Assembly: GCF_035084215.1 (NCBI RefSeq)
Contig: NC_090366.1
Span: 13,826,001 to 13,890,000, forward strand
Length of the DNA: 64,000 bases
Direction: 5' to 3'
Source: Heptranchias perlo
Taxonomy: Eukaryota
A program made the position numbers and the translations under genes. Of this stretch, positions 4,830-42,980 are shown piece after piece; within the stretch, counting starts at the first letter, position 1; every line of letters starts with the position of its first letter. A model generated the notes under the pieces. That model made no database searches. It was not told the DNA's origin and was given only the letters and a program-made list of their open reading frames with translations.

Positions 4830-7232
4830 CACCATATCCCTCAATCCCTCCTACCCACCACCTCTCCATATCCCTCAATCCCACCTACCTACCTTCACAC
4901 CATATCCCTCAATCCCACCTACCCACCTTCTCCCTATATCCCTCAATCCCACCTACCCACCTTCTCCCCATATCCCTCAATCCCTCCTACCCACCTTCTC
5001 CCCATATCCCTCAATCCCACCTTCCCACCTTCTCCCTATATCCCTCAATCCCTCCTACCCACCATCTCCCCATATCCCTCAAACCCACCTACCTACCTTC
5101 TCCTCATATCCGTCAAACCCACCTACCCACCTTCTCCCCATATCCCTCAATCCCACCCACCCACCATCTCCCCATATCCCTTAAACCCCACCTTCTCACC
5201 ATATCCCTCAATCCCACCCACCCACCATCTCCCCATATCCCTTAAACCCCACCTCCCCACCTTCTCACCATATCCCTCAATCCCACCCACCCACCATCTC
5301 CCCATATCCCTTAAACCCCACCTCCCCACCTTCTCACCATATCCCTCAATCCCACCCACCCACCATCTCCCCATATCCCTTAAACCCCACCTCCCCACCT
5401 TCTCACCATATCCCTCAATCCCACCCACCCACCTTCTCACCATATCCCTCAATCCCACCTACCCACCTTCTCCCCATATCCCACAATCCCACCTACCCAC
5501 CTTCTCACCATATCCCTCAATCCCACCCACCCACCTTCTCACCATATCCCTCAATCCCACCTACCCACCTTCTCCCCATATCCCACAATCCCACCTCCCC
5601 ACCTTCTCACCATATCCCTCAATCCCACCTACCCACCTTCTCCCCATATCCCACAATCCCACCTCCCCACCTTCTCACCATATCCCTCAATCCCACCTAC
5701 CCACCTTCTCCCCATATCCCACAATCCCACCTCCCCACCTTCTCCCCATATCCCACAATCCCACCTACCCACCTTCTCACCATATCCCTCAATCCCACCC
5801 ACCCACCATCTCCCCATATCCCTTAAACCCCACCTCCCCACCTTCTCACCATATCCCTCAATCCCACCCACCCACCTTCTCACCATATCCCTCAATCCCA
5901 CCTACCCACCTTCTCCCCATATCCCTCAATCCCACCCACCCACCATCTCCCCATATCCCTTAAACCCCACCTCCCCACCTTCTCACCATATCCCTCAATC
6001 CCACCCACCCACCATCTTCCCATATCCCTTAAACCCCACCTCCCCACCTTCTCACCATATCCCTCAATCCCACCCACCCACCTTCTCACCATATCCCTCA
6101 ATCCCACCTACCCACCTTCACACCATATCCCTCAATCCCACCCACCCACCTTCTCCCCATATCCCTCAATCCCACCCACCCACCATCTCCCCATATCCCT
6201 TAAACCCCACCTCCCCACCTTCTCACCATATCCCTCAATCCCACCCACCCACCATCTTCCCATATCCCTTAAACCCCACCTCCCCACCTTCTCACCATAT
6301 CCCTCAATCCCACCCACCCACCTTCTCACCATATCCCTCAATCCCACCTACCCACCTTCTCCCCATATCCCACAATCCCACCTCCCCACCTTCTCACCAT
6401 ATCCCTCAATCCCACCTACCCACCTTCTCCCCATATACCACAATCCCACCTCCCCACCTTCTCACCATATCCCTCAATCCCACCTACCCACCTTCTCCCC
6501 ATATCCCACAATCCCACCTCCCCACCTTCTCCCCATATCCCACAATCCCACCTACCACCTTCTCACCATATCCCTCAATCCCACCCACCCACCATCTCCC
6601 CATATCCCTTAAACCCCACCTCCCCACCTTCTCACCATATCCCTCAATCCCACCCACCCACCTTCTCACCATATCCCTCAATCCCACCTACCCACCTTCT
6701 CCCCATATCCCTCAATCCCACCCACCCACCATCTCCCCATATCCCTTAAACCCCACCTCCCCACCTTCTCACCATATCCCTCAATCCCACCCACCCACCA
6801 TCTTCCCATATCCCTTAAACCCCACCTCCCCACCTTCTCACCATATCCCTCAATCCCACCCACCCACCTTCTCACCATATCCCTCAATCCCACCTACCCA
6901 CCTTCACACCATATCCCTCAATCCCACCCACCCACCTTCTCCCCATATCCCTCAATCCCACCCACCCACCATCTCCCCATATCCCTTAAACCCCACCTCC
7001 CCACCTTCTCACCATATCCCTCAATCCCACCCACCCACCATCTTCCCATATCCCTTAAACCCCACCTCCCCACCTTCTCACCATACCCCTCAATCCCACC
7101 TACCCACCTTCTCCCCATATCCCTCAATCCCACCTACCCACCTTCTCACCATATCCCTCAATCCCACCCACCCACCTTCTCACCATATCCCTCAATCCCA
7201 CTTACCCACCTTCACACCATATCCCTCAATCC
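4830..7232. repeat. C-rich minisatellite, ~33-34-bp unit ccatatccctcaatcccacc(t/c)acccaccttctc(a/c)
   Basis: About 2.4 kb of tandem variants, with higher-order repetition of variant order. Confidence 0.95.
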
Positions 7233-28397: not shown

Positions 28398-29274
28398 GGC
28401 CCTAAACTTGTTCTAGGCAGTGAACAGACGTCACTCCCCACTCCTAAGTAACTAGCGCACCCACAAACTTTTTGCGGGTTTCTGGACACCAACTTGCTTC
28501 AGTGGAAGCCTGCAAGGAGTTGAGCGAAATTTCCCAGGCTTCCCTGATCAGTGATTGGGCAGGAGAGGTGGGGGGGGGGGAAAGGATCTCGCTCTCTCTC
28601 CCCTCAACCAATCAGCTGAAAGCATCATTGACAGGTCAGAACCAAGGCGTGAAAGCCCCGCTCGCAAGCCACAAGAACCAGGAAGTGTCGGATAGATCAG
28701 TAAATTCTCTATAAAATCAGTTAGAAAAGGCGTACTAAAGATCGGGTGAGCTTAAAGACAGAGGTAAAAGAGACAGAAAGAATAAGTAAAGAAAAATAAC
28801 AACTTTGCAGTTTTTTAATTTATTTTTTTAAATGCCCATCAACAATGAATATCGGGAGGAATGAGACTCCACATTTTTAAAAGTTAGTTTTCAGTGCCAG
28901 AGAGGCTGATTGTCAGTCATTAACACTTATCAAGTCAGTTTAGACCTAAAAACCCTTTTTTTATGGAGAGGTTAATTCGTTCCCAGCTGGGCAGTGCAGC
29001 AAGTTTGTGTTAATCCATTCATTCAGACAGCGAGATCTCTTTAACGTGAAGTTTCAAACGAGCAGGGTCAATGGTGGACCAAATTCCCAATTTCTGCCTT
29101 TGACCGCTCATGGACTCTGCCATTTGCCCTGAAATCATGGTGAGCCCCGTTATCCTCGCCAATAGTTTATGAGACGTTTCCAGGACATTGTGTCTGATTC
29201 TGGGCACCGCACTTTAGGAAGGATGTCCATGCCTCAGAGAGGGTGCAGAAGAGATTTACCAGAATGGGACCAGG

Positions 29275-29874
29275 TGTCAAAAACTTAAACTTAATATTAC
29301 TTATTCTATACAATGCATTAACACCCAAACACTTAATTCAGACAAGCGCGAATTTATTAAGAAGCTTGTGCAAGTGGAAGAGAGTGCCTCAAACAATAGT
29401 TGAGGCTACGTCTTCGCTGAGTTCAAGAAACAGCTCACATTTATACAGTTCAGTAACGACGCCCACCTGGTCACAGAATATGGGCGTACATTCTTTATTG
29501 GTTCAGGTAGTTAGTCAATCAAAATAGGGAACCCACCCTCTGGTTCCCATGGCCGTCTCGATATTTTGGACACAGGCCTGGGAAAGTGCTTTTTCCCTAA
29601 GAAACTGTCTTTATTATCAGTAAGTCTGTAGCTAGTCTCAAGGCTATATGGTCGTTCATATCTGTTAGTCAGACAGTTATCAGCACGTGAAAGCTCAAAG
29701 TAATTACACAATTGTGCTTCTGTGTGTTTTTCGTGAGAAACTATCATGTGAGCTTTAAATTGAATTAGCTGGTCAGTTAATATGGTCAAATATCCATCAT
29801 GCATTTCTACATTCGTGAGTTAGGCGTATTAGAGAGAGTTGATATGGTCAGGTATCTCTTTATGCATTTCCACA
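29275..29874 (-). repeat. 3' LTR
   Basis: Direct repeat of 35617-36219; preceded on - strand by polypurine tract AAAAGGGGGGAA (29875-29886). Confidence 0.95.
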
Positions 29875-29929
29875 TTCCCCCCTTTTGTCCTTTATAAAGG
29901 ACAATATTCTAGTAGAGCATTATTCCAGC

Positions 29930-30509
29930 TAGACGTTCAAACTCTTCTGAGTGCAATTACTCCATCCCATCGTATCACCCCCCCGCTGAATTCTTACTCA
30001 AACGTATTGTTCCATTAGATCTTGGTGTATTTGTAAGGATTAAAAATAGAGGTTTACGGGTCTGATCGTAATTGGATTGGTACCACCTCCGAAATTTGGT
30101 TTCACATTTTGTTGTGATTGTATTCTCCTTCCATTGCTTTCTCACAAACATTGCCTTACTTGTCTTCGCGTTCATCCAGCCAACTATCTCGCATTCTGTT
30201 CCCGTTAATATCAATTTGATTTATTACCCACTCCGCTATTTCTTGGGAAGTTAGGGGGACTGGTCTGAGGGGAATGCTTCCCTTGGATTGAATTGGGATA
30301 TGTGAGCACACCCAGCAACTAGAGATACCTTGACCCTTTGCATACATATATGACATGTATAAAAAAGTATTGACATGCAGTTCCCTTGAAACGCGATTGA
30401 GTCGACTTGCAGCAGGGGTTGTAGCAGGTCCTATGCTAATTACCACCCACACGATCAGGCACGCCGAGCCAACTATTCCCAAATGATCTAACAGTTTAGG
30501 ACATGCCAT
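29930..30509 (-). pseudogene. env: env-2: gamma-type env SU N-terminus, truncated
   Basis: Hydrophobic leader GIVGSACLIVWVVISIG, then NTFL...SSCWVCSHIP (CxxC); no ISD or CX6CC TM region visible. Confidence 0.75.
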
Positions 30510-30858
30510 GCTGCAGCAGTCTCTTATAACAGTTTAATTAATCAGTCAGTTTTTTTTCTGGTACGCCACTGCCGGGGTCCTTGTATGGGGATTTATGGGT
30601 TAATCAATTAACTTCTAGGCCTGACCTTTGAACTCGAGATTGGGACCCTCCCCTTTATATCCCTTAATCCAAATTTTATCCCTATAATATCCTCTTGAAT
30701 GCTGTACCTCATCTTAACCAGGTTCCCTTCGTGTTGGCCACCAGTCCGGGTGGAAGAGAGGCAGAGCATCTGATAATCCTATCAAACTATGATTGTCTCC
30801 CCTTTTACATGCACCTTACCCCAGCGGGTGCTACTCCCGGTACCATTAAGATGTGTTC

Positions 30859-32499
30859 TTAGTTGAAATCACAGACAATGGGGACATTCTCACCCAGGCT
30901 CTGTTTTACTATCTTTGCCAAACCCTTCATCCTCTGCTTACATTTATTACATGCCATGAAAATCAAGAAGCACATTACAACAAACTGCACTACGACTAAT
31001 ACATGTGAAATTAATCTAATCTAAGGATGGATCTGTATATTCAGTCCCCAATTCCAGAGGTCATCCCAACAAGTGGTGACTTTAATTTGGTCAATGTCAT
31101 GCTTAATGTTTTTATTGTCCTGTTGTAGGTTATAATAAACCTTCTGGGAGAGTCGTATCTCCATTCGCAATGCTTTCAAGTATTCAGGCAACAGGGGTGT
31201 CAGATACCCAAATGTTCCTGATATTCTTTTAAGTCCTTTTTGATATCCTCAGGAACTTGTAAGGTGGTGAGGTTATGCCGGTGTATCTCGACCAGTTCCT
31301 CGGGTCCAATCCGAACCGGGACTTCAGGAATGGAGCAGAACTCTGGACTTAAAATATCACAAGTTAGATTGGCATATTTAAATGTTTTCAAATTAGTTGT
31401 AACACGGTATTCGCCCTCTCCGGCATATGCCACTTGAGTGGGTTTTAGATCCGGCCCTAGGGCCTCCATGGTACAGTTAATATCCTGATTGGTACCGGTA
31501 TTGTTAAACCCACACTGTGTTCTGGGCTGTGTCCAACACTATGTGGACATACAGTGACAGCATGTCTAGTAACTCATCCCTCTAATTTTGTTCCAGCCAA
31601 ATTCCCTTTAATTTTTTTCACAGCATATGGTAACATATTGTGATGGGATCTGTGCATTCCGTCCTTCACTACCCCAATATTCTGTACTTGGTACACCTCT
31701 CGTCCCTGGGTTTCGGGTGCCATCACCGGTATTACTAGTGCCAACCCTAGGAGCCCTCCTCCGTCAGGTTTACACTCCACTTGAGTGGGGTACACTCGCA
31801 CCATTGCCCTGAATTGGCAAGGGGTGATGTTCTTGTTTGCTAGCAGCCGCTTGGAGGTACCACCTCCATCATGCCCACGGGTCAGGTTCACCCTCAGTTT
31901 GTTGATTCGTTATTCATAAGGGTACTTCCCCTGCCTGTATCTGGGCTAGGTTCTCTCGTGTCTGTTCCACAATCCAGTTACCATATGTACTGCAGATATC
32001 ATTAGCAGCCGCCTGCTAAGATACGTTATATTCCTCTTTTATTAATTTATTAATGGTTTGGGCATGTGTTTCTAGCACTGTAGCTATCTTTTGCAAATCT
32101 ATGGTCAGCATTTGATCCTCAGACAATTCCTTATCTGTATTTTCATTTATTTTTTAAAATATATCTTTAATGCGAGATCCAAAATCTCTGACCTTTTGAT
32201 CTAATGTTGCCAAATCAATGATGTTAACAACTGAGGCACCCGTATTAAAGGCAGTTGCTATATCGTTAATCACAGACCATTTACGTCTCCACATGTGTCT
32301 ATCTCTTTTACGATGTCCACCTCCATTCCATGTCGCGCCTTGTTTTAACACTTGAGTTAGGAGGTGTTGATATAATTGTTGAGTTTTCTTAGAACACCAT
32401 GTGGGTAGGGCCGTATCGGTTAAATCTAGTACGACCGGTACAAGCTCATGTTGCACGTTATCATACATTACATTCTCAATGCGAGTTATATAATTTGTC
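30859..32499 (-). pseudogene. env-1: F-type (paramyxovirus-F/foamy-like) class I fusion glycoprotein pseudogene
   Basis: Short N-terminal subunit, RRK(W/R) cleavage site, fusion peptide, HR1, Cys-rich beta region, HR2, WDDLWNW, TM and tail, reconstructed across ~5 stops and ~3 frameshifts. Confidence 0.75.
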
Positions 32500-32696
32500 A
32501 GGGAAGGTCTCCCCCCTTTGGTCAGATCTTGTATTGGAGCTACTATTCGTGAATAGTTCAAAATAAAATCGAATAGCCCCAGAACTTGTCGAACTTCCTT
32601 ATCGTACTGTGGGCGGGGTAAATTTAAAATTGTCAATTTCCTATCTTCTGGTAGGCGTTTAGTACCCTGTGTCTGTACATAGCCCAAGTAATGGAC
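32500..32696 (-). pseudogene. pol: pol remnant (RT C-terminal/thumb region)
   Basis: VHYLGY...LPRPQYDKEVRQVLGL...YSRIVAPIQDLTK. Confidence 0.8.
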
Positions 32697-33228
32697 TTCC
32701 AGTTGTCCAACCTATGCTTTCTCTTCATACGATTTGTTTTACATTCACCTTTCTTGTCAATTTTCTTTCCACTGTAGCATTGTCTGTGTGGAAACTTATA
32801 TCTCAGTCAAGTTGTAGCCTTTGGCATTCCCGAGTAATTGGGTCAATTTTAATAGCATAACCTACACCAATTGTTACCTCATGTTCACCTGTGTTCTGGG
32901 CAAGCCTCAGACAGTTGAAAGCCAATATGATCATTATCGCCGTCTTTTTTTGTGTTTTTTTTTTCATCTATTCCCTCAGGGGAGGAGGATTCAAGGATCC
33001 TCACCATGCACCCTGAAGAAAGAGGGTGTCTCCCTTCAAAATTCACAAAAATCATTGTTTTTATCAAGAGACAATAAAACTGTTTAAACAGTACCTGCTC
33101 TTTCCACTTTCAGAATGCTGTGACTCCAAAGGTATCAGACCCAACATCTTAAAAAAAACTTGTGCAGTCCAAATACTTAACTTCAGCGAAACGGAAATAA
33201 GGGTTAGTTACTTCTTGCTTGTCAAATA

Positions 33229-33574
33229 TGGTACCAATATGGACCACGACTACTGGCTGTTCACCCTCCCCCTCCAGAATGCCCTGCAGCCGCTCCGTGA
33301 CATCCTTGACCCTAGCACCAGGGAGGCAACATACCATCCTGGAGTCACGTTTGCGGCCGCAGAAACGCCTATCTGTTCCCCTTACAATGGAATCCCCTAT
33401 CACTATAGCCCTGCCACTCTTCTTCCTCCCCTCCTGTGCAGCAGAGCCACCCGTGGTGCCCCGAACCTGGCTCTTGCTGCATTCCCCTGATAAGCCATCT
33501 CCCCCAACAGTATCTAAAGCAGAATATCTGTTTGAGAGGGAGATGCCCCCAGGGGACTCCTGCTCTACCTGCCT
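33229..33574 (-). mobile_element. CR1 ORF1 (SGNH esterase) internal fragment inside the ERV
   Basis: LSNRYSAL...VIGDSIVRGTDRRFC...CCLPGARVKDV...VVVHIGT. Confidence 0.88.
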
Positions 33575-34675
33575 CGGGGGAGGAATCAATCACAATAGCA
33601 CAAAATGCTTCGAAGAAGATCAAATTAATTTATAACCAGAGACCATCCTGCAACTGTAACTTGTAATTCTTTAAAGCTGCACTTTATCTTTTCTTTTACA
33701 ATTAAACCTCATTTTGTCGATTATTTTATATAAATGCAAAGGTTGTTGCTTGGTGAATTGAAAACAGATGTCGGTGTCCTTAGAAGGGGTTAACTTTATT
33801 TTTTTTTGCAGAAACAAAACGATGGAGCCAGATATCAGATTCACGCAGCGTACGTCAACGCAGCTTTCACATAAATTATTTTTTTTTGTAAAAAAACATT
33901 CATACCGGGAAATAACATCTCCCATCATACATTTTAGATCATAGTTAGTCCAGTATTTCCAGCTTGTTGTGATTAACTTTTGTTTAGGACCCCTCAATTT
34001 CTAATTGCTTTGTAAGTTTTATAATTTGCTGTCCTCGCCATACACAACTATAGCTTTCAAATTCATTATTTTTCACATACTTTTTGTGGGTATGATTGTA
34101 ACCAACTCTCCGAGCTGTTCCAGCTTTCCAGCTTTTCCTATCAAGGTGATACCAGATAGTTTTTTTTTTATCTGCCCCGTTTTTGGGTCATTTTTTTTTC
34201 AAACCACAGCCAATCACAAGATAAAAAGGGCTGTGCTGTCAGAGCTAACAGCTTTCACATTTTAGTACAACCAAGATTAATCCCAAAATTATCAAAATTG
34301 ATGCCCTGTACTAGATAACAAGATGTCGATCTTCGATTTGCAGTAACACACAACATTAATTCTTTACACATCAATTCACACTCACCAATACTCAACAAAA
34401 CTTAAACTTCAAATCACTCGACATTTAAGAAATTCAAAATGCCAATTTTTCTGTGAAGATCCCATGTCTGGAATTTGACATGCTCACATTTTATAAGAAC
34501 CAGAATTTAATAGGTCACTTAACCTCAATAACTCCAATTTTAATTCAGCAATATCAGAATTAAACACAAGACAAAACAGATACATTACACAAAAGAGGAA
34601 AACACGTAAGACGCAGTAAGAAGGGGGTGTGGCCCGCAACACCGACATAAAACACTCACAATAAGGACAGGCTTT

Positions 34676-34918
34676 TTAAAGAGTCAGTACACTGAAAACA
34701 AAAGAACCTTTCTTTCTCGGGACTCTGTCTTCTAAACATTTTTCTAAACACTTAATTCTATCCATATTAAATGTACCGTCTTCGGGAAAAGGATATTTTC
34801 TAGTCCTGGTCCATTTTGACCAAACTATCAACTCGTCAGTTGTTTCTTTCCCAGAGTTTCTGTACATATAAGCAGCAGGTGTTCCCTTTGGAGGGATTTT
34901 GCTTGCGCTGGCGCCCAT
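34676..34918 (-). pseudogene. gag: gag matrix N-terminus remnant
   Basis: MGASASK myristoylation signal; WSKWT...FPEDGTF resembles class I (epsilon/gamma-like) matrix proteins. Confidence 0.8.
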
Positions 34919-35592
34919 GGCTTTATACAATTTTTACACTATAATTACACAGCGATTAACGATCGCAATTCTGTACTTGGTAATTCAGCCGGTTGGACAA
35001 GACGTCATGTGTTCTCTGCACCTACTTTAGGGTCCTGGCCTTCACGTGGGGTTAAAACCCTCTTAATAACCAGCTCAGGCTAGGTGCGTGAGAGAAACAT
35101 CTGCAATTGGTTGGATCAGCTGACTTACACAAGATTTTTATATACCTTAACACTATGCGAGGTAAATTACAATTTCACACTGTTCCGAATGTTAAAATTT
35201 TATTTTACTCAAGTCTGTAGCCTTGTCACCTCTCTCTTTTCCTGGCGCCTTTTTCCACTAGCAGCTGACCGTCTGTCGGCCCCATACAGCAACCTCAATG
35301 TCACTGTAGTAATCACCGGTATCACAGATCTACTCCGTTATTGCTCTCTCTCAGCCCGTTACTACAACACCGCAGCTGACAATATCGAGTGATCTGTCGC
35401 GTCTCTCTTTTTTTTTCTCCCCTTTTTTTTTTCTCCTTGTCTATACGAAACACATTTCCTATGATCGCCTTCCAATTCCTAAAGGCAAACAGAAGAATTA
35501 GTCACGTCAGTTAATGCATACATTTACCAATCGCGGTGCGTCTGCGGCTTGCACAGACAACCTGTATCCGTACTTACCGGGGATCACAAGCG

Positions 35593-35610
35593 ATCTCGGT
35601 GGGACCTCCA
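35593..35610 (-). other. Primer binding site, tRNA-Gln
   Basis: TGGAGGTCCCACCGAGAT is complementary to the vertebrate tRNA-Gln 3' end (ATCTCGGTGGGACCTCCA); candidate splice donor GTAAGT just downstream (35572-35577). Confidence 0.9.
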
Positions 35611-35616
35611 AGAAAC

Positions 35617-36219
35617 TGTCGAAAACTTAAACTCAATATTACTTATTCCGTACAATGCATTAACACCCAAACACTTAATTCAGACAAGTGAGAATTTATT
35701 AAGAAACTTGTGCAAGTGGAAGAGAGTGCCTCAAACAATGGTTGAGGCCACGTCTTCGCTGAGTTCAAGAAACAGCTCACGTTTATACAGTTCAGTAACG
35801 ACGCCCACCTGTCATAGAATATGGGCGTACATGTACATTCTTTATTGGTTCAGGTAGTTAGTCAATCAAAATAGGGAACCCACCCTCTGGTTCCCATGGC
35901 CGTCTCGATATTTTGGACGCAGGCCTGGGAAAGTGCTTTTTCCCTAAGAAACTGTCTTTATTATCAGTAAGTCTGTAGCTAGTCTCAAGGCTATATGGTC
36001 GTTCATTTCTGTTAGTCAGACAGTTATCAGCACATGAAAGCTCAAAGTAATTACACAATTCTGTTTCTATGTGTTTTTCGTGAGAAACTATCATGTGAGC
36101 TTTAAATTGAATTAGCTGGTCAGTTAATATGGTCAAATATCCATCATGCATTTCTACATTTGTGAGTTAGGTGTATTAGAGGGTTAATATGGTCAGGTAT
36201 CTCTTTATGCATTTCCGCA
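35617..36219 (-). repeat. 5' LTR
   Basis: On - strand CCAAT, GTATAAA and AATAAA in order; by eye ~20 substitutions and 3 indels relative to the other LTR. Confidence 0.95.
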
Positions 36220-36890
36220 CAGGGATGAAGGACTTCAGTTATGTGGAGAGACTGGAGAAGCTGGGATTGTTCTCCTTAGAGCAGAGAAGGTTAAGGGGAG
36301 ATTTAATCGAGGTGTTCAAAATCATGAAGGGTTTTGATAGAGTAAATAAGGGAGAGCAGGAGAGTGGGATTAGACTGGGTGGGATATTAAAGGGTACGGG
36401 GAGTGAGGGGGAGAGTGGGATTAGACTGGGTGGGATATTAAAGGGTACGGGGAGTGAGGGGGAGAGTGGGATTAGACTGGGTGGGATATTAAAGGGTACG
36501 GGGAGTGAGGGGGAGAGTGGGATTAGACTGGGTGGGATATTAAAGGGTACGGGGAGTGAGGGGGAGAGTGGGATTAGACAGGAGGGTCGGTAACCAGAGG
36601 ACACAGATTTAAAATAATTGGCGAAAGAGCCAAAGGGGGAGATGGGGAGAATTTTTTTTACGCAGCGAGTTGTTCTGATCTGGAATGCGCTGCCTGAAAG
36701 GGCGGTGGAAGCAGATTCAATAATAACTTTCAAAAGGGGAATTGGATAAATACTTGAAGGGGAGAATTTGCAGGGGCTACGGGGAAAGAGCAGGGGGGAG
36801 TGGGACTAATTGGATATCTCTTTCAAAGAGCCGGCACAGGCTCGATGGGCCGAATAGCCTCCTATAGTGCTGTACCTACTATGATTCCAC
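36220..36890 (+). mobile_element. CR1 3' fragment, right part of the copy split by the ERV (left part 29195-29274)
   Basis: Reading frame continues across the TSD: FTRMGP/GMKDFSYVERLEKLGLFSLE; contains a minisatellite insert at ~36350-36578. Confidence 0.88.
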
Positions 36891-36925
36891 TATGAAGAGA
36901 GAAGGAATGTTTGGAATCAAATGGG

Positions 36926-36935
36926 GGAAGTGAAA
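36926..36935 (+). promoter_or_regulatory. Ets-IRF composite element (EICE) GGAAGTGAAA
   Basis: Exact consensus ~120 bp upstream of the start-codon exon; motif match only. Confidence 0.45.
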
Positions 36936-37064
36936 TCTTTGGAGGCGATTTCAGCTATGGGTGATCTCCATTTGCGATTAGAGGTGAAAGGTATTTCTGA
37001 TAATTGCTGAGTATTGTAAACCTCTCCATTAATTGTCTCCAACTTTATTTCAGTCCCTTTGCAA

Positions 37065-37110
37065 ATGACATCCTTAAGAACGCTTTTCCTGACGCTGATT
37101 TTGTTCCAAG
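37065..37110 (+). CDS. CD22/Siglec-like receptor: signal-peptide exon (exon 37054-37110)
   Basis: tttatttcag acceptor, ATG 37065, MTSLRTLFLTLILFQ, phase-1 donor CAAG|gtaggc joining in frame to DVLG-YDW. Confidence 0.8.
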
Positions 37111-37279
37111 GTAGGCACTCTTATGACTGTTCATTCACAGCAATTATCATAAAGTGGCTTTAATGCAGAGAAACATCCCAAGAGGAGACGAGGAGGCGAG
37201 GGAGGGTTGGAAGAGCTTAGCTGAAAAGATGGATTTAAAGGTGGGAAGGAAGGTAGGAAGATAGAGGGGCTTTGGGAGG

Positions 37280-38590
37280 GAGAGCAGGAGAGTGGGATTA
37301 GACTGGGTGGGATATTAAAGGGTACGGGGAGAGTGGGATTAGACTGGGTGGGATATTGAAGGGTACGGGGAGTGAGGGGAGAGTGGGATTAGACTGGGTG
37401 GGATATTAAAGGGTGTGGGGAGTGAGGGGAGAGTGAGATTAGACTGGGTTGGATATTAAAGGGTGTGGGGAGTGAGGGGGAGAGTGGGATTAGACTGTGT
37501 GGGATATTGAAGGGTGTGGGGAGTGAGGGGGAGAGTGGGATTAGACTGGGTGGGATATTAAAGGGTGTGGGGAGTGAGGGGAGAGTGGGTTTAGACTGTG
37601 TGGGATATTGAAGGGTGTGGGGAGTGAGGGGAGAGTGGGATTAGACTGGGTGGGATATTAAAGGGTAGGGGGAGTGAGTGGGAGAGTGGGATTAGACTGG
37701 GTGGGATATTAAAGGGTATGGGGAGTGAGGGGAGAGTGGGATTGGACTGGGTGGGATATTAAAGGGTACGGGGAGTGAGGGGGAGAGTGGGATTAGACTG
37801 GGTGGGATATTAAAGAATACGGGGAGTGAGGGGAGAGTGGGATTAGACTGGGTGGGATATTACAGGGTATGGGGAGTGAGGGGGAGAGTGGGATTAGACT
37901 GGGTGGGATATTACAGGGTATGGGGAGTGAGGGGGAGAGTGGGATTAGACTGGGTGGGATATTATGGGGTATGGGGAGTGAGGGGAGAGTGGGATTAGAC
38001 TGGGTGGGATATTACGGGGTATGGGGAGTGAGGGGAGAGTGGGATTAGACTGGGTGGGATATTACAGGGTATGGGGATGAGGGGAGAGTGGGATTAGACT
38101 GGGTGGGATATTAAAGGGTACAGGGAGTGAGGGGAGAGTGGGATTAGACTGGGTGGGATATTACAGGGTATGGGGATGAGGGGAGAGTGGGATTAGACTG
38201 GGTGGGATATTAAAGGGTACAGGGAGTGAGGGGAGAGTGGGATTAGACTGGGTGGGATATTACGGGGTATGGGGAGTGAGGGGAGAGTGGGATTAGACTG
38301 GGTGGGATATTACGGGGTATGGGGAGTGAGGGGAGAGTGGGATTAGACTGGGTGGGATATTACAGGGTACAGGGAGTGAGGGGAGAGTGGGATTAGACTG
38401 GATGGGATATTAAAGGGTACAGGGAGTGAGGGGAGAGTGGGATTAGACTGGGTGGGATATTAAAGGATACGGGGAGTGAGGGGAGAGTGGCATTAGACTG
38501 GATGGGATATTAAAGGGTACGGGGAGTGAGGGGAGAGTGGGATTAGACTGGGTGGGATATTAAAGGGTACAGGGAGTGAGGGGAGAGTGG
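37280..38590. repeat. G-rich 50/51-bp minisatellite (~26 copies)
   Basis: Unit gggagagtgggattagactgggtgggatattaaagggtacggggagtgag(g). Confidence 0.94.
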
Positions 38591-38625
38591 AGGTGCTGTA
38601 TAAATGCATGTTCTTGTTGCTATAG

Positions 38626-38967
38626 ATGTCCTTGGCTATGACTGGGACGTGAAGACGCCTGGGAACATCACTGGGATTGAAGACTCCTGCGTGGTGATCC
38701 CTTGTACCTTCCAGTGTCCCGGAAACCCCAATGCCGTCATGTGGTTGAAGGGAGACAAGACCAGTGGGATACAAGTGATCAACTCCACCGGGAAACCAGA
38801 CTCTGCCTTCGAAGGTCGGGCCCAATTCCTTGCTAATTGGAAAACAGAGAAAGATTGCACCTTAAAGATAAATAAACTAAGGAAGAGCGATAAGGGAACA
38901 TATTACTTTCGAATGGAACGGAACATTAAGTATTCAGACCCAAAGGGAGTCACGATAGATTTTTCTG
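38626..38967 (+). CDS. Siglec-like exon: V-set domain 1
   Basis: tatag|...G|gtaagt, phase 1-1; WDV, SCVVIPC, KDCTLKI, DKGTYYFRME (essential Arg), KYS. Confidence 0.93.
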
Positions 38968-39109
38968 GTAAGTTTAACTGCATTTTGCATCAGCCACGAT
39001 GAAAAGCAGGGCAGGCTCGAGGGGCTGAATGGCCTCCTCATGTTCCTATTTCTTAATGTGATAACTTCATTACAGCCCCGATGTGAGATTTCTGTGCTTT
39101 GTTTTGATA

Positions 39110-39735
39110 GAATCTTACAGCACAGAAGGAGGCTATTCGGCCCATCGTGCCTGTGCCAGCTCTTTGGAAGAGCTCTCCAATTAGTCCCACTCCCCCCCTG
39201 CTCTTTCCCCAAAACCCTGCAAATTTTTCCTTTTCAAGTATTTATCCAATTCCCCCTTTGAAAGTTATTATTGAATCTGCTTCCACCGCCCTTTCAGGCA
39301 GCGCATTCCAGATCAGAACAACTCGCTGCGTAAAAAAACATTCTCCTCATCTCCCCCTCTGGTTCTTTCGCCGATTATCTTAAATCTGTGTCCTCTCGTT
39401 ACCGACCCTCCTGCCACTGGAAACAGTTTCTCCTTATTTACTCTATCAAAACCCTTCATGATTTTGAACCCCTCGATTAAATCTCCCCTTAACCTTCTCT
39501 GCTCTAAGGAGAACAATCCCAGCTTCTCCAGTCTCTCCGCATCACTGAAGTCCCTCATCCCTGGTCCCATTCTGGTAAATCTCCTCCACACCCTCTCCAA
39601 GGCCTTGACATCCTTCCTAAAGTGCGGTGCCCAGAATTGGAGACAATACTCCAGCTGAGGCCTAACCAGTGTTTTATAAAGGGTTTAGCATAACTTCCTT
39701 GCTTTTGTACTCTATGCCTCTACTTATAAAGCCCA
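39110..39735 (-). mobile_element. CR1 3' fragment
   Basis: ERVWRRFTRM...RRLRGDLIE. Confidence 0.85.
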
Positions 39736-39895
39736 AATGTTGGCTCGTGTGGAGCATAAACACCAGCATAGACCAGTTGGGCCGAATGGCCTGTTTCTGA
39801 GCTGTAGTTTCGATGTTGCCGGGTGATTTTTACTCTGTTCACGCACGCAGTCTGCATTCAATAACGTTGTGTCTCTCCTGACTGTTTCCCAAAAG

Positions 39896-40189
39896 ACGCA
39901 CCGAGTTTAATAAACATATCAACACCTGCGAGGATGATCGAGGGAGAGGAAGTGAGTTTAGTTTGCTCCGTGAAGTATCTGTGCGCTGACCTTCTCCGAT
40001 GGTACAGCTTTGAGGGTTTAAACCGGTCGACTTCGACCGAAACCAAAGGCACAGCTCAAAATGGATGGATTACCAGCCGTACGTTGAGTTTTGTCCCTTC
40101 TTACAAGGATGACGGGAAGTCGCTGAGCTGTGGACTTCAGTCAACAATGGGCGAGTCTCACAGAAAAAACATCACTTTAAACGTGGAAT
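39896..40189 (+). CDS. Siglec-like exon: C2-set domain 2
   Basis: ag|...T|gtaagt; LVCSVKYLC (extra interdomain Cys), LSFVPSYKDDGKSLSC. Confidence 0.9.
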
Positions 40190-40259
40190 GTAAGTAAACT
40201 GGGCTCAGCTGAAAGATTACTTTCCGTATCGAGTTCGAGCTCGGGGCGGGTATGCGGCA

Positions 40260-41130
40260 GGTGTCAGGAGGTCGTGGGTTCGAGCCCCCACTCCAGAGAC
40301 TCGAGCCCCATAATCCCAGGCCGACACTCCCCAGTGCCCAGTACTGAGGGAGCGCCGCACTGTCGGAGGGGCAGTACTGAGGGAGCGCTGCACTGTCGGA
40401 GGTGCCGTCTTTCGGATGAGACGTTAAACCGAGGCCCCGTCTGCCCCTCTCAGGTGGGATGTAAAAGATCCCACGGCCACTATTTCGAGGAAGAGCAGGG
40501 GGGAGTTCTCCCCGGTGTCCTGGGGCCGATATTTATCCCTCAACCAAAAAACAGATTGGTCGGTTAATAATTTTTATCATTGGACTACTGCGTTCAGTTC
40601 TGGGCACCGCACCTCAGGAAGGATATATTGGCCTTGGAGGGGGTGCAGTGCAGATTCACCAGAATGATACCGGGGCTTAGAGGGTTAAATTCCGAGGACA
40701 GGTCGCACAGACTGGGCTTGTATTCCCTCGAGTGTAGAAGATTAAGGGGTGATCTAATCGAGGGGTTTGAGATGATTAAAGGATTCGATAGGGTCGATAG
40801 AGAGAAACTATTTCCTCTGGTGGGGGGAGTCCAGAACAAGGGGGCAGAACCTTAAAATTAGAGCCGGGCCGTTCAGGGGTGATGTCGGGAAGCACTTCCT
40901 CACACAAAGGGGAGTGGGAATCTGGAACTCTCTCCCCCAAAAAGCTGTTGAGGCCGGGGGTCAATTGGAAATTTCAAAACTGAGATTGATCGATTTTTGT
41001 TGGGTGAGGGGATTAAGGGTTACAGAACCAAGGCGGGTAAATGGGGTTAAGATACAGATCAGCCATGATCTAATTGAATGACGGAACAGGCCTGAGGGGC
41101 TGAATGGCCTCCTCCTGCTCCTATTGTCCT
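40260..41130 (+). mobile_element. DeuSINE fragment (40260-40560) followed by CR1 3' fragment (40580-41130)
   Basis: Similarity to other copies in the window. Confidence 0.85.
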
Positions 41131-41307
41131 ATCTCATTGCTGTATCTGCGACCTTGCTCCTATGAATTTCCCTTCATTGGCTCCGAAGCGTATTGGGAGG
41201 TCCTAAGGCAGTTTTTCCCTATTCCTCCTGTGCTCGGTGTGCGCCCAACACTGACCCTGTCCATCGCCTCGAGTTAACATGCTTACTGAATTCTTTTTGT
41301 CTCTCAG

Positions 41308-41568
41308 ATGCCCCTAAGGATGTTTACATTGCTTCCTCTCGCTTTACACCAATCACTAAGGGTGTCACGATCACATTAAGATGCATGTTCTCAACCAGTA
41401 ACCCACCAGTAACTACCTACAAATGGACAGGGAACAGCCATTGGACTCGATCTAGAACAAGACAAACATATGTGACTCCTGCATTTCATGGCAATCAAGA
41501 ATACACGTGTGAAGCATCTAATTCAGTTGGAACAACCTCCTCCGATAAAATCAAACTGGTAATATTAG
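41308..41568 (+). CDS. Siglec-like exon: C2-set domain 3
   Basis: ctcag|...G|gtatgt; YAPKDV, TLRC...SNPPVTTYKW...YTCEASNSVG. Confidence 0.9.
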
Positions 41569-41579
41569 GTATGTATCAA

Positions 41580-42980
41580 GGCCTTCCATCTCCCACCCTC
41601 CGTAAACTCCAGCTCATTCAAAACTCTGCTGCCCCCGTATCCTAACTCGCACCGAGTCCCGTTCACCCATCACCCCCTGTGCTCGCTGACCAACATCGGC
41701 TCCCGATCCGGGAACGCCTCGATTTTAAAACCATCATCCTCGTGTTCAAATCCCTCCATGGCCCTCACCGCCCCCCTCCCTATCTCTGTAACCTCCTCCA
41801 GCCCCTCACCCCTCCCTATCTCTGTAACCTCCTCCAGCCCCTCACCCCTCCCTATCTCTGTAACCTCCTCCAGCCCCTCACCCCTCCCTATCCCTGTAAC
41901 CTCCTCCAGCCCCTCACCCCTCCCTATCTCTGTAACCACCTCCAGCCCCACACCCCTCCCTATCCCTGTAACCTCCTCCAGCCCCTCACCCCTCCCTATC
42001 CCTGTAACCTCCTCCAGCCCCACACCCCTCCCTATCTCTGTAACCACCTCCAGCCCCACACCCCTCCCTATCCCTGTAACCTCCTCCAGCCCCACACCCC
42101 TCCCTATCTCTGTAACCTCCTCCAGCCCCACACCCCTCCCTATCCCTGTAACCTCCTCCAGCCCCACACCCCTCCCCACCTCTGTAAACTCCTCCAGCCC
42201 CACACCCCTCCCTATCCCTGTAACCTCCTCCGGCCCCACACCCCTCCCTATCTCTGTAACCTCCTCCAGCCCCACACCCCTCCCTATCTCTGTAACCTCC
42301 TCCAGCCCCTCACCCCTCCCTATCCCTGTAACCTCCTCCAGCCCCTCACCCCTCCCTATCTCTGTAACCTCCTCCAGCCCCACACCCCTCCCTATCCCTG
42401 TAACCACCTCCAGCCCCACACCCCTCCCTATCCCTGTAACCACCTCCAGCCCCACACCCCTCCCTATCCCTGTAACCTCCTCCAGCCCCACACCCCTCCC
42501 TATCTCTGTAACCTCCTCCAGCCCCACACCCCTCCCTTTCTCTGTAACCTCCTCCAGCCCCACACCCCTCCCTATCCCTGTAACCACCTCCAGCCCCACA
42601 CCCCTCCCTATCCCTGTAACCTCCTCCAGCCCCACACCCCTCCCTTTCTCTGTAACCTCCTCCAGCCCGACAACCCTCCGAGATCTCTGCACTCCTCCAA
42701 TTCTGGCCTCTTGTCCATCCCCCGATTTCCATCGCTCCACCATTGGCGGCCGTGCCTTCAGCTGCCTGGGCCCTAAGCTCTGGAATTCCCTCCCTAAACC
42801 TCTCCGCCTCTCTCTCTCCTCCTTTAAGACGCTCCTTAAAACCTACCTCTTTGACCAAGCTTTTGGTCACCTGTCCTAATATCTCCTTATGTGGCTCGGG
42901 GTTAAATTTTGTCTGATTTACGCTCCTGTGAAGCTCCTTGGGATTTTACTATGTCAAAGGTGCTATATAAATGCAAGTAG
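41580..42980 (+). mobile_element. L2 3' fragment with internal 36-bp unit expanded ~25 times (41774-42668)
   Basis: KLQLIQNSAA, then (PPYLCNLLQPHT)n, then normal L2 end. Confidence 0.9.

Follow-up and report, generated by a model that had tools for sequence, protein, structure and literature searches.

A provirus on the minus strand of the window (the whole 64,000-nucleotide stretch of DNA analysed here) carries two structurally different types of envelope gene in tandem inside a single LTR pair, and both genes are broken in this copy. The upstream gene (env1) is F-like by comparison with the published Env of lokiretroviruses and the downstream gene (env2) is gamma-type by its database matches, which agrees with the two classes that a first-pass annotation had assigned to them. 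With a probability of roughly two in three, we consider the element to be a defunct member of a family of shark endogenous retroviruses (ERVs) that descends from a progenitor organised as gag-pol-env(F-like, Loki-type)-env(gamma-type, at first complete with TM)-PPT-LTR. From this arrangement we infer the capture of an envelope gene without replacement of the other.

Results

Structure, age and surroundings of the provirus

Paired LTRs with TG..CA ends, a target site duplication (TSD), a primer binding site (PBS) and a polypurine tract (PPT) identify the element as a retroviral provirus (Table 1). Its internal part of 5,742 nt is single-copy in the window and comprises, in proviral order, the PBS, a splice donor, the gag start, decayed DNA with a GC-rich insert, a reverse transcriptase (RT) remnant, env1, a spacer, env2 and the PPT. 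As the first-pass annotation had described, both env genes share the proviral orientation between one LTR pair with an intact TSD, and env2 is followed by the PPT and the 3' LTR. The two LTRs are identical at 575 of 597 aligned bases (96%; K2P 0.038). The CCTG duplication can be taken as real because the interrupted LINE is present in four other copies in the window, in all of which the sequences flanking the provirus are joined with a 4-nt overlap. The PBS matches what we take to be tRNA-Gln; no tRNA gene for comparison was found in the window. A perfect 20-nt palindrome (29904-29885) overlaps the start of the PPT.

Table 1 Features of the provirus, in proviral order (window coordinates)
Feature	Position	Strand	Remarks
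TSD, upstream copy	36220..36223	-	CCTG, inside LINE fragment
5' LTR	35617..36219	-	603 nt, TG..CA
PBS	35593..35610	-	18 nt, starts TGG, 6 nt after LTR
Splice donor, G/GTAAGT	35572..35580	-	full consensus, cut 35578/35577
gag N-terminus	34676..34918	-	Met-Gly start, myristoylation-like; decayed afterwards
GC-rich later insertion	33227..33625	-	inside provirus, flanked by 6-nt direct repeat
RT thumb remnant	32520..32711	-	61 residues left; rest of pol deleted
env1, probable Loki-type F-like envelope pseudogene	30859..32515	-	stop 30861-30859
env1-env2 spacer	30510..30858	-	349 nt
env2, open part	30156..30509	-	ATG 30509, 117 aa; N-terminus of gamma-type SU (CWVC) behind a signal peptide
env2, decayed SU in other frames	29941..30155	-	colinear with residues 193-260 (P0004) and 106-161 (P0006)
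PPT	29875..29886	-	
3' LTR	29275..29874	-	600 nt, TG..CA
TSD, downstream copy	29271..29274	-	CCTG

The divergence of the LTRs corresponds to an insertion age of about 87 million years at the substitution rate of 2.2e-10 assumed in PMC4422223 and of 18 million years at the rate of 1.03e-9 assumed in PMC12690878, and because these two published rates lie so far apart the age can be stated only roughly, as tens of millions of years. The strand opposite to the provirus carries, some 2.4 kb away from the 5' LTR, the exons of a CD22/Siglec-like Ig gene (38604-41645, plus strand), which encode a V-set domain followed by C2-type domains. Many LINE fragments are scattered over the window, together with arrays of a 30-33-nt minisatellite. 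Long arrays start at about 12470 and about 54850 and further ones occupy approximately 5000-7000, 36360-38500 and 41650-42800; some contain copies on both strands.

Gag and pol remnants

The surviving N-terminal piece of gag presumably belongs to a class I-like protein; it had no Pfam match and returned nothing significant in a sequence search of the PDB. Its Met-Gly start sets it apart from the four Loki Gag sequences with which it was compared, all of which begin without one. A Cys-containing stretch at about 32870-32810 (minus strand), split over two frames, may by eye be the remnant of a gag zinc knuckle. The GC-rich insertion, which in our estimation resembles the ORF1 esterase of CR1/L2 LINEs, has no Pfam match, and the 6-nt direct repeat around it may be due to chance.

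When the RT remnant was searched against the PDB, all nine matches were to retroviral RT/Pol. MLV/XMRV-type enzymes scored E 9e-5 to 2e-4 (25-26 bits) and foamy virus enzymes E 2e-4 to 2e-3 (22-25 bits); with 61 residues left and the RT core deleted, these scores do not appear to separate a class I from a foamy-like backbone. Given the gag start and an RT piece too short for placement, we do not assign the element as a whole to the lokiretroviruses.

env1 resembles the F-like Env of lokiretroviruses

The 5' end of env1 is deleted, leaving the gene fused to the RT remnant near 32515 and devoid of a start and a signal peptide. The remainder is interrupted by four in-frame stops (32156, 32018, 31576 and 31023) as well as by three shifts of the reading frame, and env1 is dead in this copy. 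Along the gene follow a basic cluster (about 32310-32280), a fusion-peptide-like stretch (32249-32202), a helical region, a Cys-rich region and a TM (31014-30958); the fusion peptide, the helical region (called by eye) and the C-terminal TM stand in the order found in Loki Env. No canonical R-x-K/R-R cleavage motif is present in the basic cluster of this decayed copy.

Loki Env is related to the F proteins of paramyxoviruses and pneumoviruses (PMC7947760), and we compared env1 with 8 of the 23 Loki Env reference sequences in the supplement of that study. The fusion-peptide-like stretch shares 9 of 16 residues, aligned by eye, with the corresponding stretch of Loki-Oja. Six landmarks further downstream also occur in the Loki Env order, with spacings of 116/83/44/12/27/34 codons as against 121/72/46/14/26/40 counted by hand on Loki-Ofa, and the ordered matches span about 320 codons. 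The chain of six motifs was found once in env1 (its last step in two variants) and in none of 5000 dinucleotide shuffles or 144 other tiles of the window; the shuffle control is optimistic and flatters the match, since the motifs were loosened after both env1 and Loki Env had been seen.

Profile and structure searches gave no relative of env1. None of 11 pieces of the provirus, env1 included, scored above the Pfam cut-off or resembled a relevant family, and PDB sequence searches with three pieces of env1 returned nothing significant. A word-index search for homologues of the N-terminal piece found none among 649 candidates, a result that carries little weight because the same type of search also missed env2 (0 of 96 candidates, a false negative), for which a full HMMER search returned 26 matches. 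An AlphaFold model of one 112-aa piece, computed from the single sequence, was uninformative, with a pLDDT of 39.8 and no Foldseek match in BFVD at E<=0.001. Taken by motif order and spacing, env1 appears to be a distant Loki-type, F-like env, an assignment with good support that is by eye rather than formal and carries no E-value.

env2 is the remnant of a gamma-type env

The first-pass annotation had placed a second ORF about 350 bp past the stop of the F-like gene, and both the ATG at 30509 and the intervening distance were borne out. The predicted product opens with a hydrophobic leader (best 19-mer Kyte-Doolittle value 2.18, at 30482) and contains the NTF..CWVC motif noticed earlier; the Trp and both Cys of CWVC are shared by all 13 sequences aligned. 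Its relationship to gamma-type SU, also proposed in the first pass, became evident in the full HMMER search, whose 26 matches at E<=0.001 reached E 2e-21. Two of the 26, P0010 and P0026, were dropped as chance matches. Among the 19 matches that were looked up, seven were named, from catshark, sawfish, sturgeon, pike and worm lizard; three of these (catshark, sawfish and sturgeon) bear 'PABLB Env-like' names. TLV_coat was detected in 6 of 15 scanned matches and CX6CC in all eight full-length relatives, one of which (P0028) is a cluster member of a match. A profile of the env2 family found syncytin-2 (E 5.5e-20) and syncytin-1 (E 2.8e-19) as its best PDB matches, which come from the C-terminal halves of the relatives; the env2 sequence itself gave nothing significant in the PDB and no usable match in the ESM Atlas. 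On account of the HMMER matches, TLV_coat, the CX6CC-bearing relatives and the syncytin profile matches, we assign env2, by homology, to the N-terminal SU of a gamma-type env.

The first-pass annotation had regarded env2 as truncated before any TM subunit. Indeed, three TM queries in tblastn detected no gamma TM across the 64 kb (best E 0.078). SU homology, however, does not cease at the stop at 30156 but extends, in two other frames, to about 29941-29947. Across three frames the window is colinear with residues 108-260 of P0004, the closest whole relative (525 aa), and colinearity breaks about 66 nt before the 3' LTR. Therefore, the stop reflects decay inside a longer gene whose missing half was deleted. 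With TM, ISD and CX6CC deleted, env2 is a gamma-type env remnant rather than a whole gene, and it is dead in this copy.

Three of its relatives, the shark gamma-type env proteins P0003, P0004 and P0007, possess an extra Cys-rich N-terminal segment of about 100 residues, at whose end a basic, furin-like site immediately precedes the NTF motif. In others, and in env2 of the window, the leader runs directly to this site.

Spacer and splice signals

Between the two env genes we found no LTR relic, nested LTR or internal repeat. Within 30822-30796 and 30656-30646 (minus strand) the spacer has a donor-like GGTAAG near 30818 and two PPT-like purine runs, with no LTR relic after them.

The splice donor that had been suggested near 35577 proved to be a full consensus site. 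The acceptor proposed immediately before env2 (ctgcag/cATG, at 30511) was rejected: 9 of the 20 nt upstream are pyrimidines, which is no better than chance, about 60 of the 163 YAG sites in the internal region being richer. No env2 acceptor stands out among these 163 sites. The one ranking first, with 16 of 20 pyrimidines, lies about 100 nt past the donor, and the pair (35577-35479, minus strand) suggests a small leader intron.

A shark gene model joins pieces of the same two kinds of gene

A homologue search with env1 31538-31200 returned one match among 20 candidates, XP_067845660.1 (P0027), a Heptranchias perlo gene model named ENDOD1-like. Its residues 1-42 are 86% identical to env1 31331-31206, residues 41-100 correspond to the heptad/ISD region of a gamma TM and the remainder is ENDOD1. 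The same full-length gamma env protein, P0004, is the best of eight for both the TM piece of the model (66% identity) and env2 (59%). Neither the TM piece nor ENDOD1 is found in the 64-kb window.

XP_067845660.1 is probably a chimeric annotation, or else an LTR-driven transcript. Most simply, it would stem from a provirus belonging to the same family, with a gamma env that still has TM behind the F-like gene, both of which the gene predictor used as exons. Thus, a further copy probably has the tandem order of F-like and gamma genes, and a TM was probably once part of the gamma gene. An intact copy of env1 or env2 did not turn up. Known from the gene model alone, the locus may instead consist of separate insertions or be the orthologue of the insertion in the window, the latter being possible because ENDOD1 is excluded from the 64 kb only.

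Alternative explanations

Two single-env viruses might have recombined once, the H. perlo model then being an orthologue of that recombinant or a stitching together of unrelated insertions. Only one other locus was found, its identity of 86% across 42 aa is equally compatible with an orthologue and a paralogue, and gamma env is abundant in cartilaginous fish, for which PMC12813294 gives a mean of 80 long env ORFs per genome, so that chance neighbours exist. We nevertheless hold a single recombination event to be unlikely, given that the TM piece of XP_067845660.1 is of the env2 sublineage and, as had been predicted, stands behind env1 in the same orientation, and that the neighbour of the provirus in the window is the CD22/Siglec-like gene, the 29 kb on the downstream side of the provirus containing no ENDOD1. 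Misassembly of two proviruses, which the first-pass annotation had named as a way in which its proposal could fail, is scarcely credible even in a window rich in tandem repeats and LINEs: the LTRs match, the TSD was verified against empty LINE copies, the window contains no N and no internal repeat, and an independent database protein, XP_067845660.1, joins both genes.

Each of the two genes could also have a different nature from the one we propose. Suppressyn and FeLIX are parallels for a secreted SU acting by receptor interference, and env2 might likewise be purposely short, an accessory beside a functional F-like env. The first 117 codons of env2 are open and encode a signal peptide and CWVC, and co-opted gamma env genes that have no TM are known from mammals (PMC10536682). 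Such an accessory is nonetheless quite improbable, because SU homology past the stop passes through two frame changes in a pattern of decay and a TM/ISD that matches is present in the H. perlo model; moreover, 117 open codons are hardly longer than the open stretches of the dead env1 (111-112). Of the three options offered by the first-pass annotation, this one is therefore disfavoured, while a dual-envelope lineage and a snapshot of env replacement in progress both gain support from XP_067845660.1, which does not separate them. As for env1, it could be another captured type I membrane glycoprotein outside the F family, the element then having one env and one accessory gene. The empty profile, PDB and fold searches and the non-canonical basic cluster would fit this idea, which we rate as very improbable in view of the motifs that match Loki Env in order and spacing along some 320 codons, the fusion-peptide match and the C-terminal TM.

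Discussion

In order to rationalise the tandem arrangement, we propose that a Loki-related element supplied the F-like env, which came to lie between pol and a resident gamma env next to the PPT, probably by template switching or recombination between co-packaged RNAs. The F-like env is more likely the newcomer, because gamma env is common in ERVs of cartilaginous fish and adjoins the PPT here. Each env would have been read from its own spliced mRNA via the donor at 35577, and the natural acceptor of env1 would have been lost along with pol. The two deletions in the present copy, one of most of pol and the env1 leader and the other of the 3' half of env2, would be secondary losses. Within the family-level arrangement that we favour, about half of the probability falls to both envelopes having worked and about half to one of them having been a passenger during replacement. 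A replicating shark retrovirus lineage with two complete, working, unrelated envelopes, F-like and gamma-type, expressed from alternatively spliced mRNAs is accordingly a tentative proposal, and one we would sooner doubt than assert.

To our knowledge, retroviruses have been described with a single env, and the exchange of env genes has been regarded as replacement. Group I alphabaculoviruses, which encode GP64 beside a remnant F protein, do hold two unrelated fusion-protein genes after a capture; unlike the shark provirus, they are not retroviruses but DNA viruses of large size, in which packaging is not tightly limited. No provirus with two types of env emerged from a literature search, whose range did not include most subscription journals or Repbase. 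The lokiretroviruses described in PMC7947760 have an F-related Env with which env1 shares a like motif order and spacing, at distant similarity, but they are presented there with one env each, and that source reports them from none of six chondrichthyan genomes. Anamniote ERVs with gamma-type Env (10.1101/2021.11.23.469661), together with the PABLB-like env of catshark, sawfish and sturgeon, are the broad kind to which the SU of env2 belongs. Pol/env recombination is reported to be frequent in these ERVs, cartilaginous fish included, whereas the elements are described in that source with a single env, the epsilon-related ones without an accessory gene, in contrast to the tandem env found here. 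Env swapping in type D betaretroviruses, ALV-J and XtERV-S (PMC3758190, PMC10536682) likewise brought in a heterologous env by recombination, but the cases described in these sources are replacements, while the shark provirus kept both genes in tandem. WDSV and WEHV represent a fish class I lineage in which, in the account of PMC9967133, a distinct Env is held to have taken over from a gamma-type one; they have one env each.

Published fish env surveys were queried with gamma or beta Env/TM (10.1101/2021.11.23.469661, PMC12813294), and the Loki screen sought Loki elements; the combination of an F-like and a gamma-type env could therefore have escaped both. With the present provirus, a probable Loki-type env would be added to those of cartilaginous fish, its backbone looking different from that of Loki; the element also bears on the relation between the F-like Env of Loki and retroviral Env, for which PMC7947760 sets out four scenarios that it leaves open, as well as on the shift of fish class I viruses from a gamma-type to a distinct Env (PMC9967133). 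A family with both a gamma-type and an F-like env, if true, would be a direct intermediate of env exchange. If both envelopes worked, the virus would have had two entry systems, and the family would be a preserved intermediate between Loki/F and gamma-type Env.
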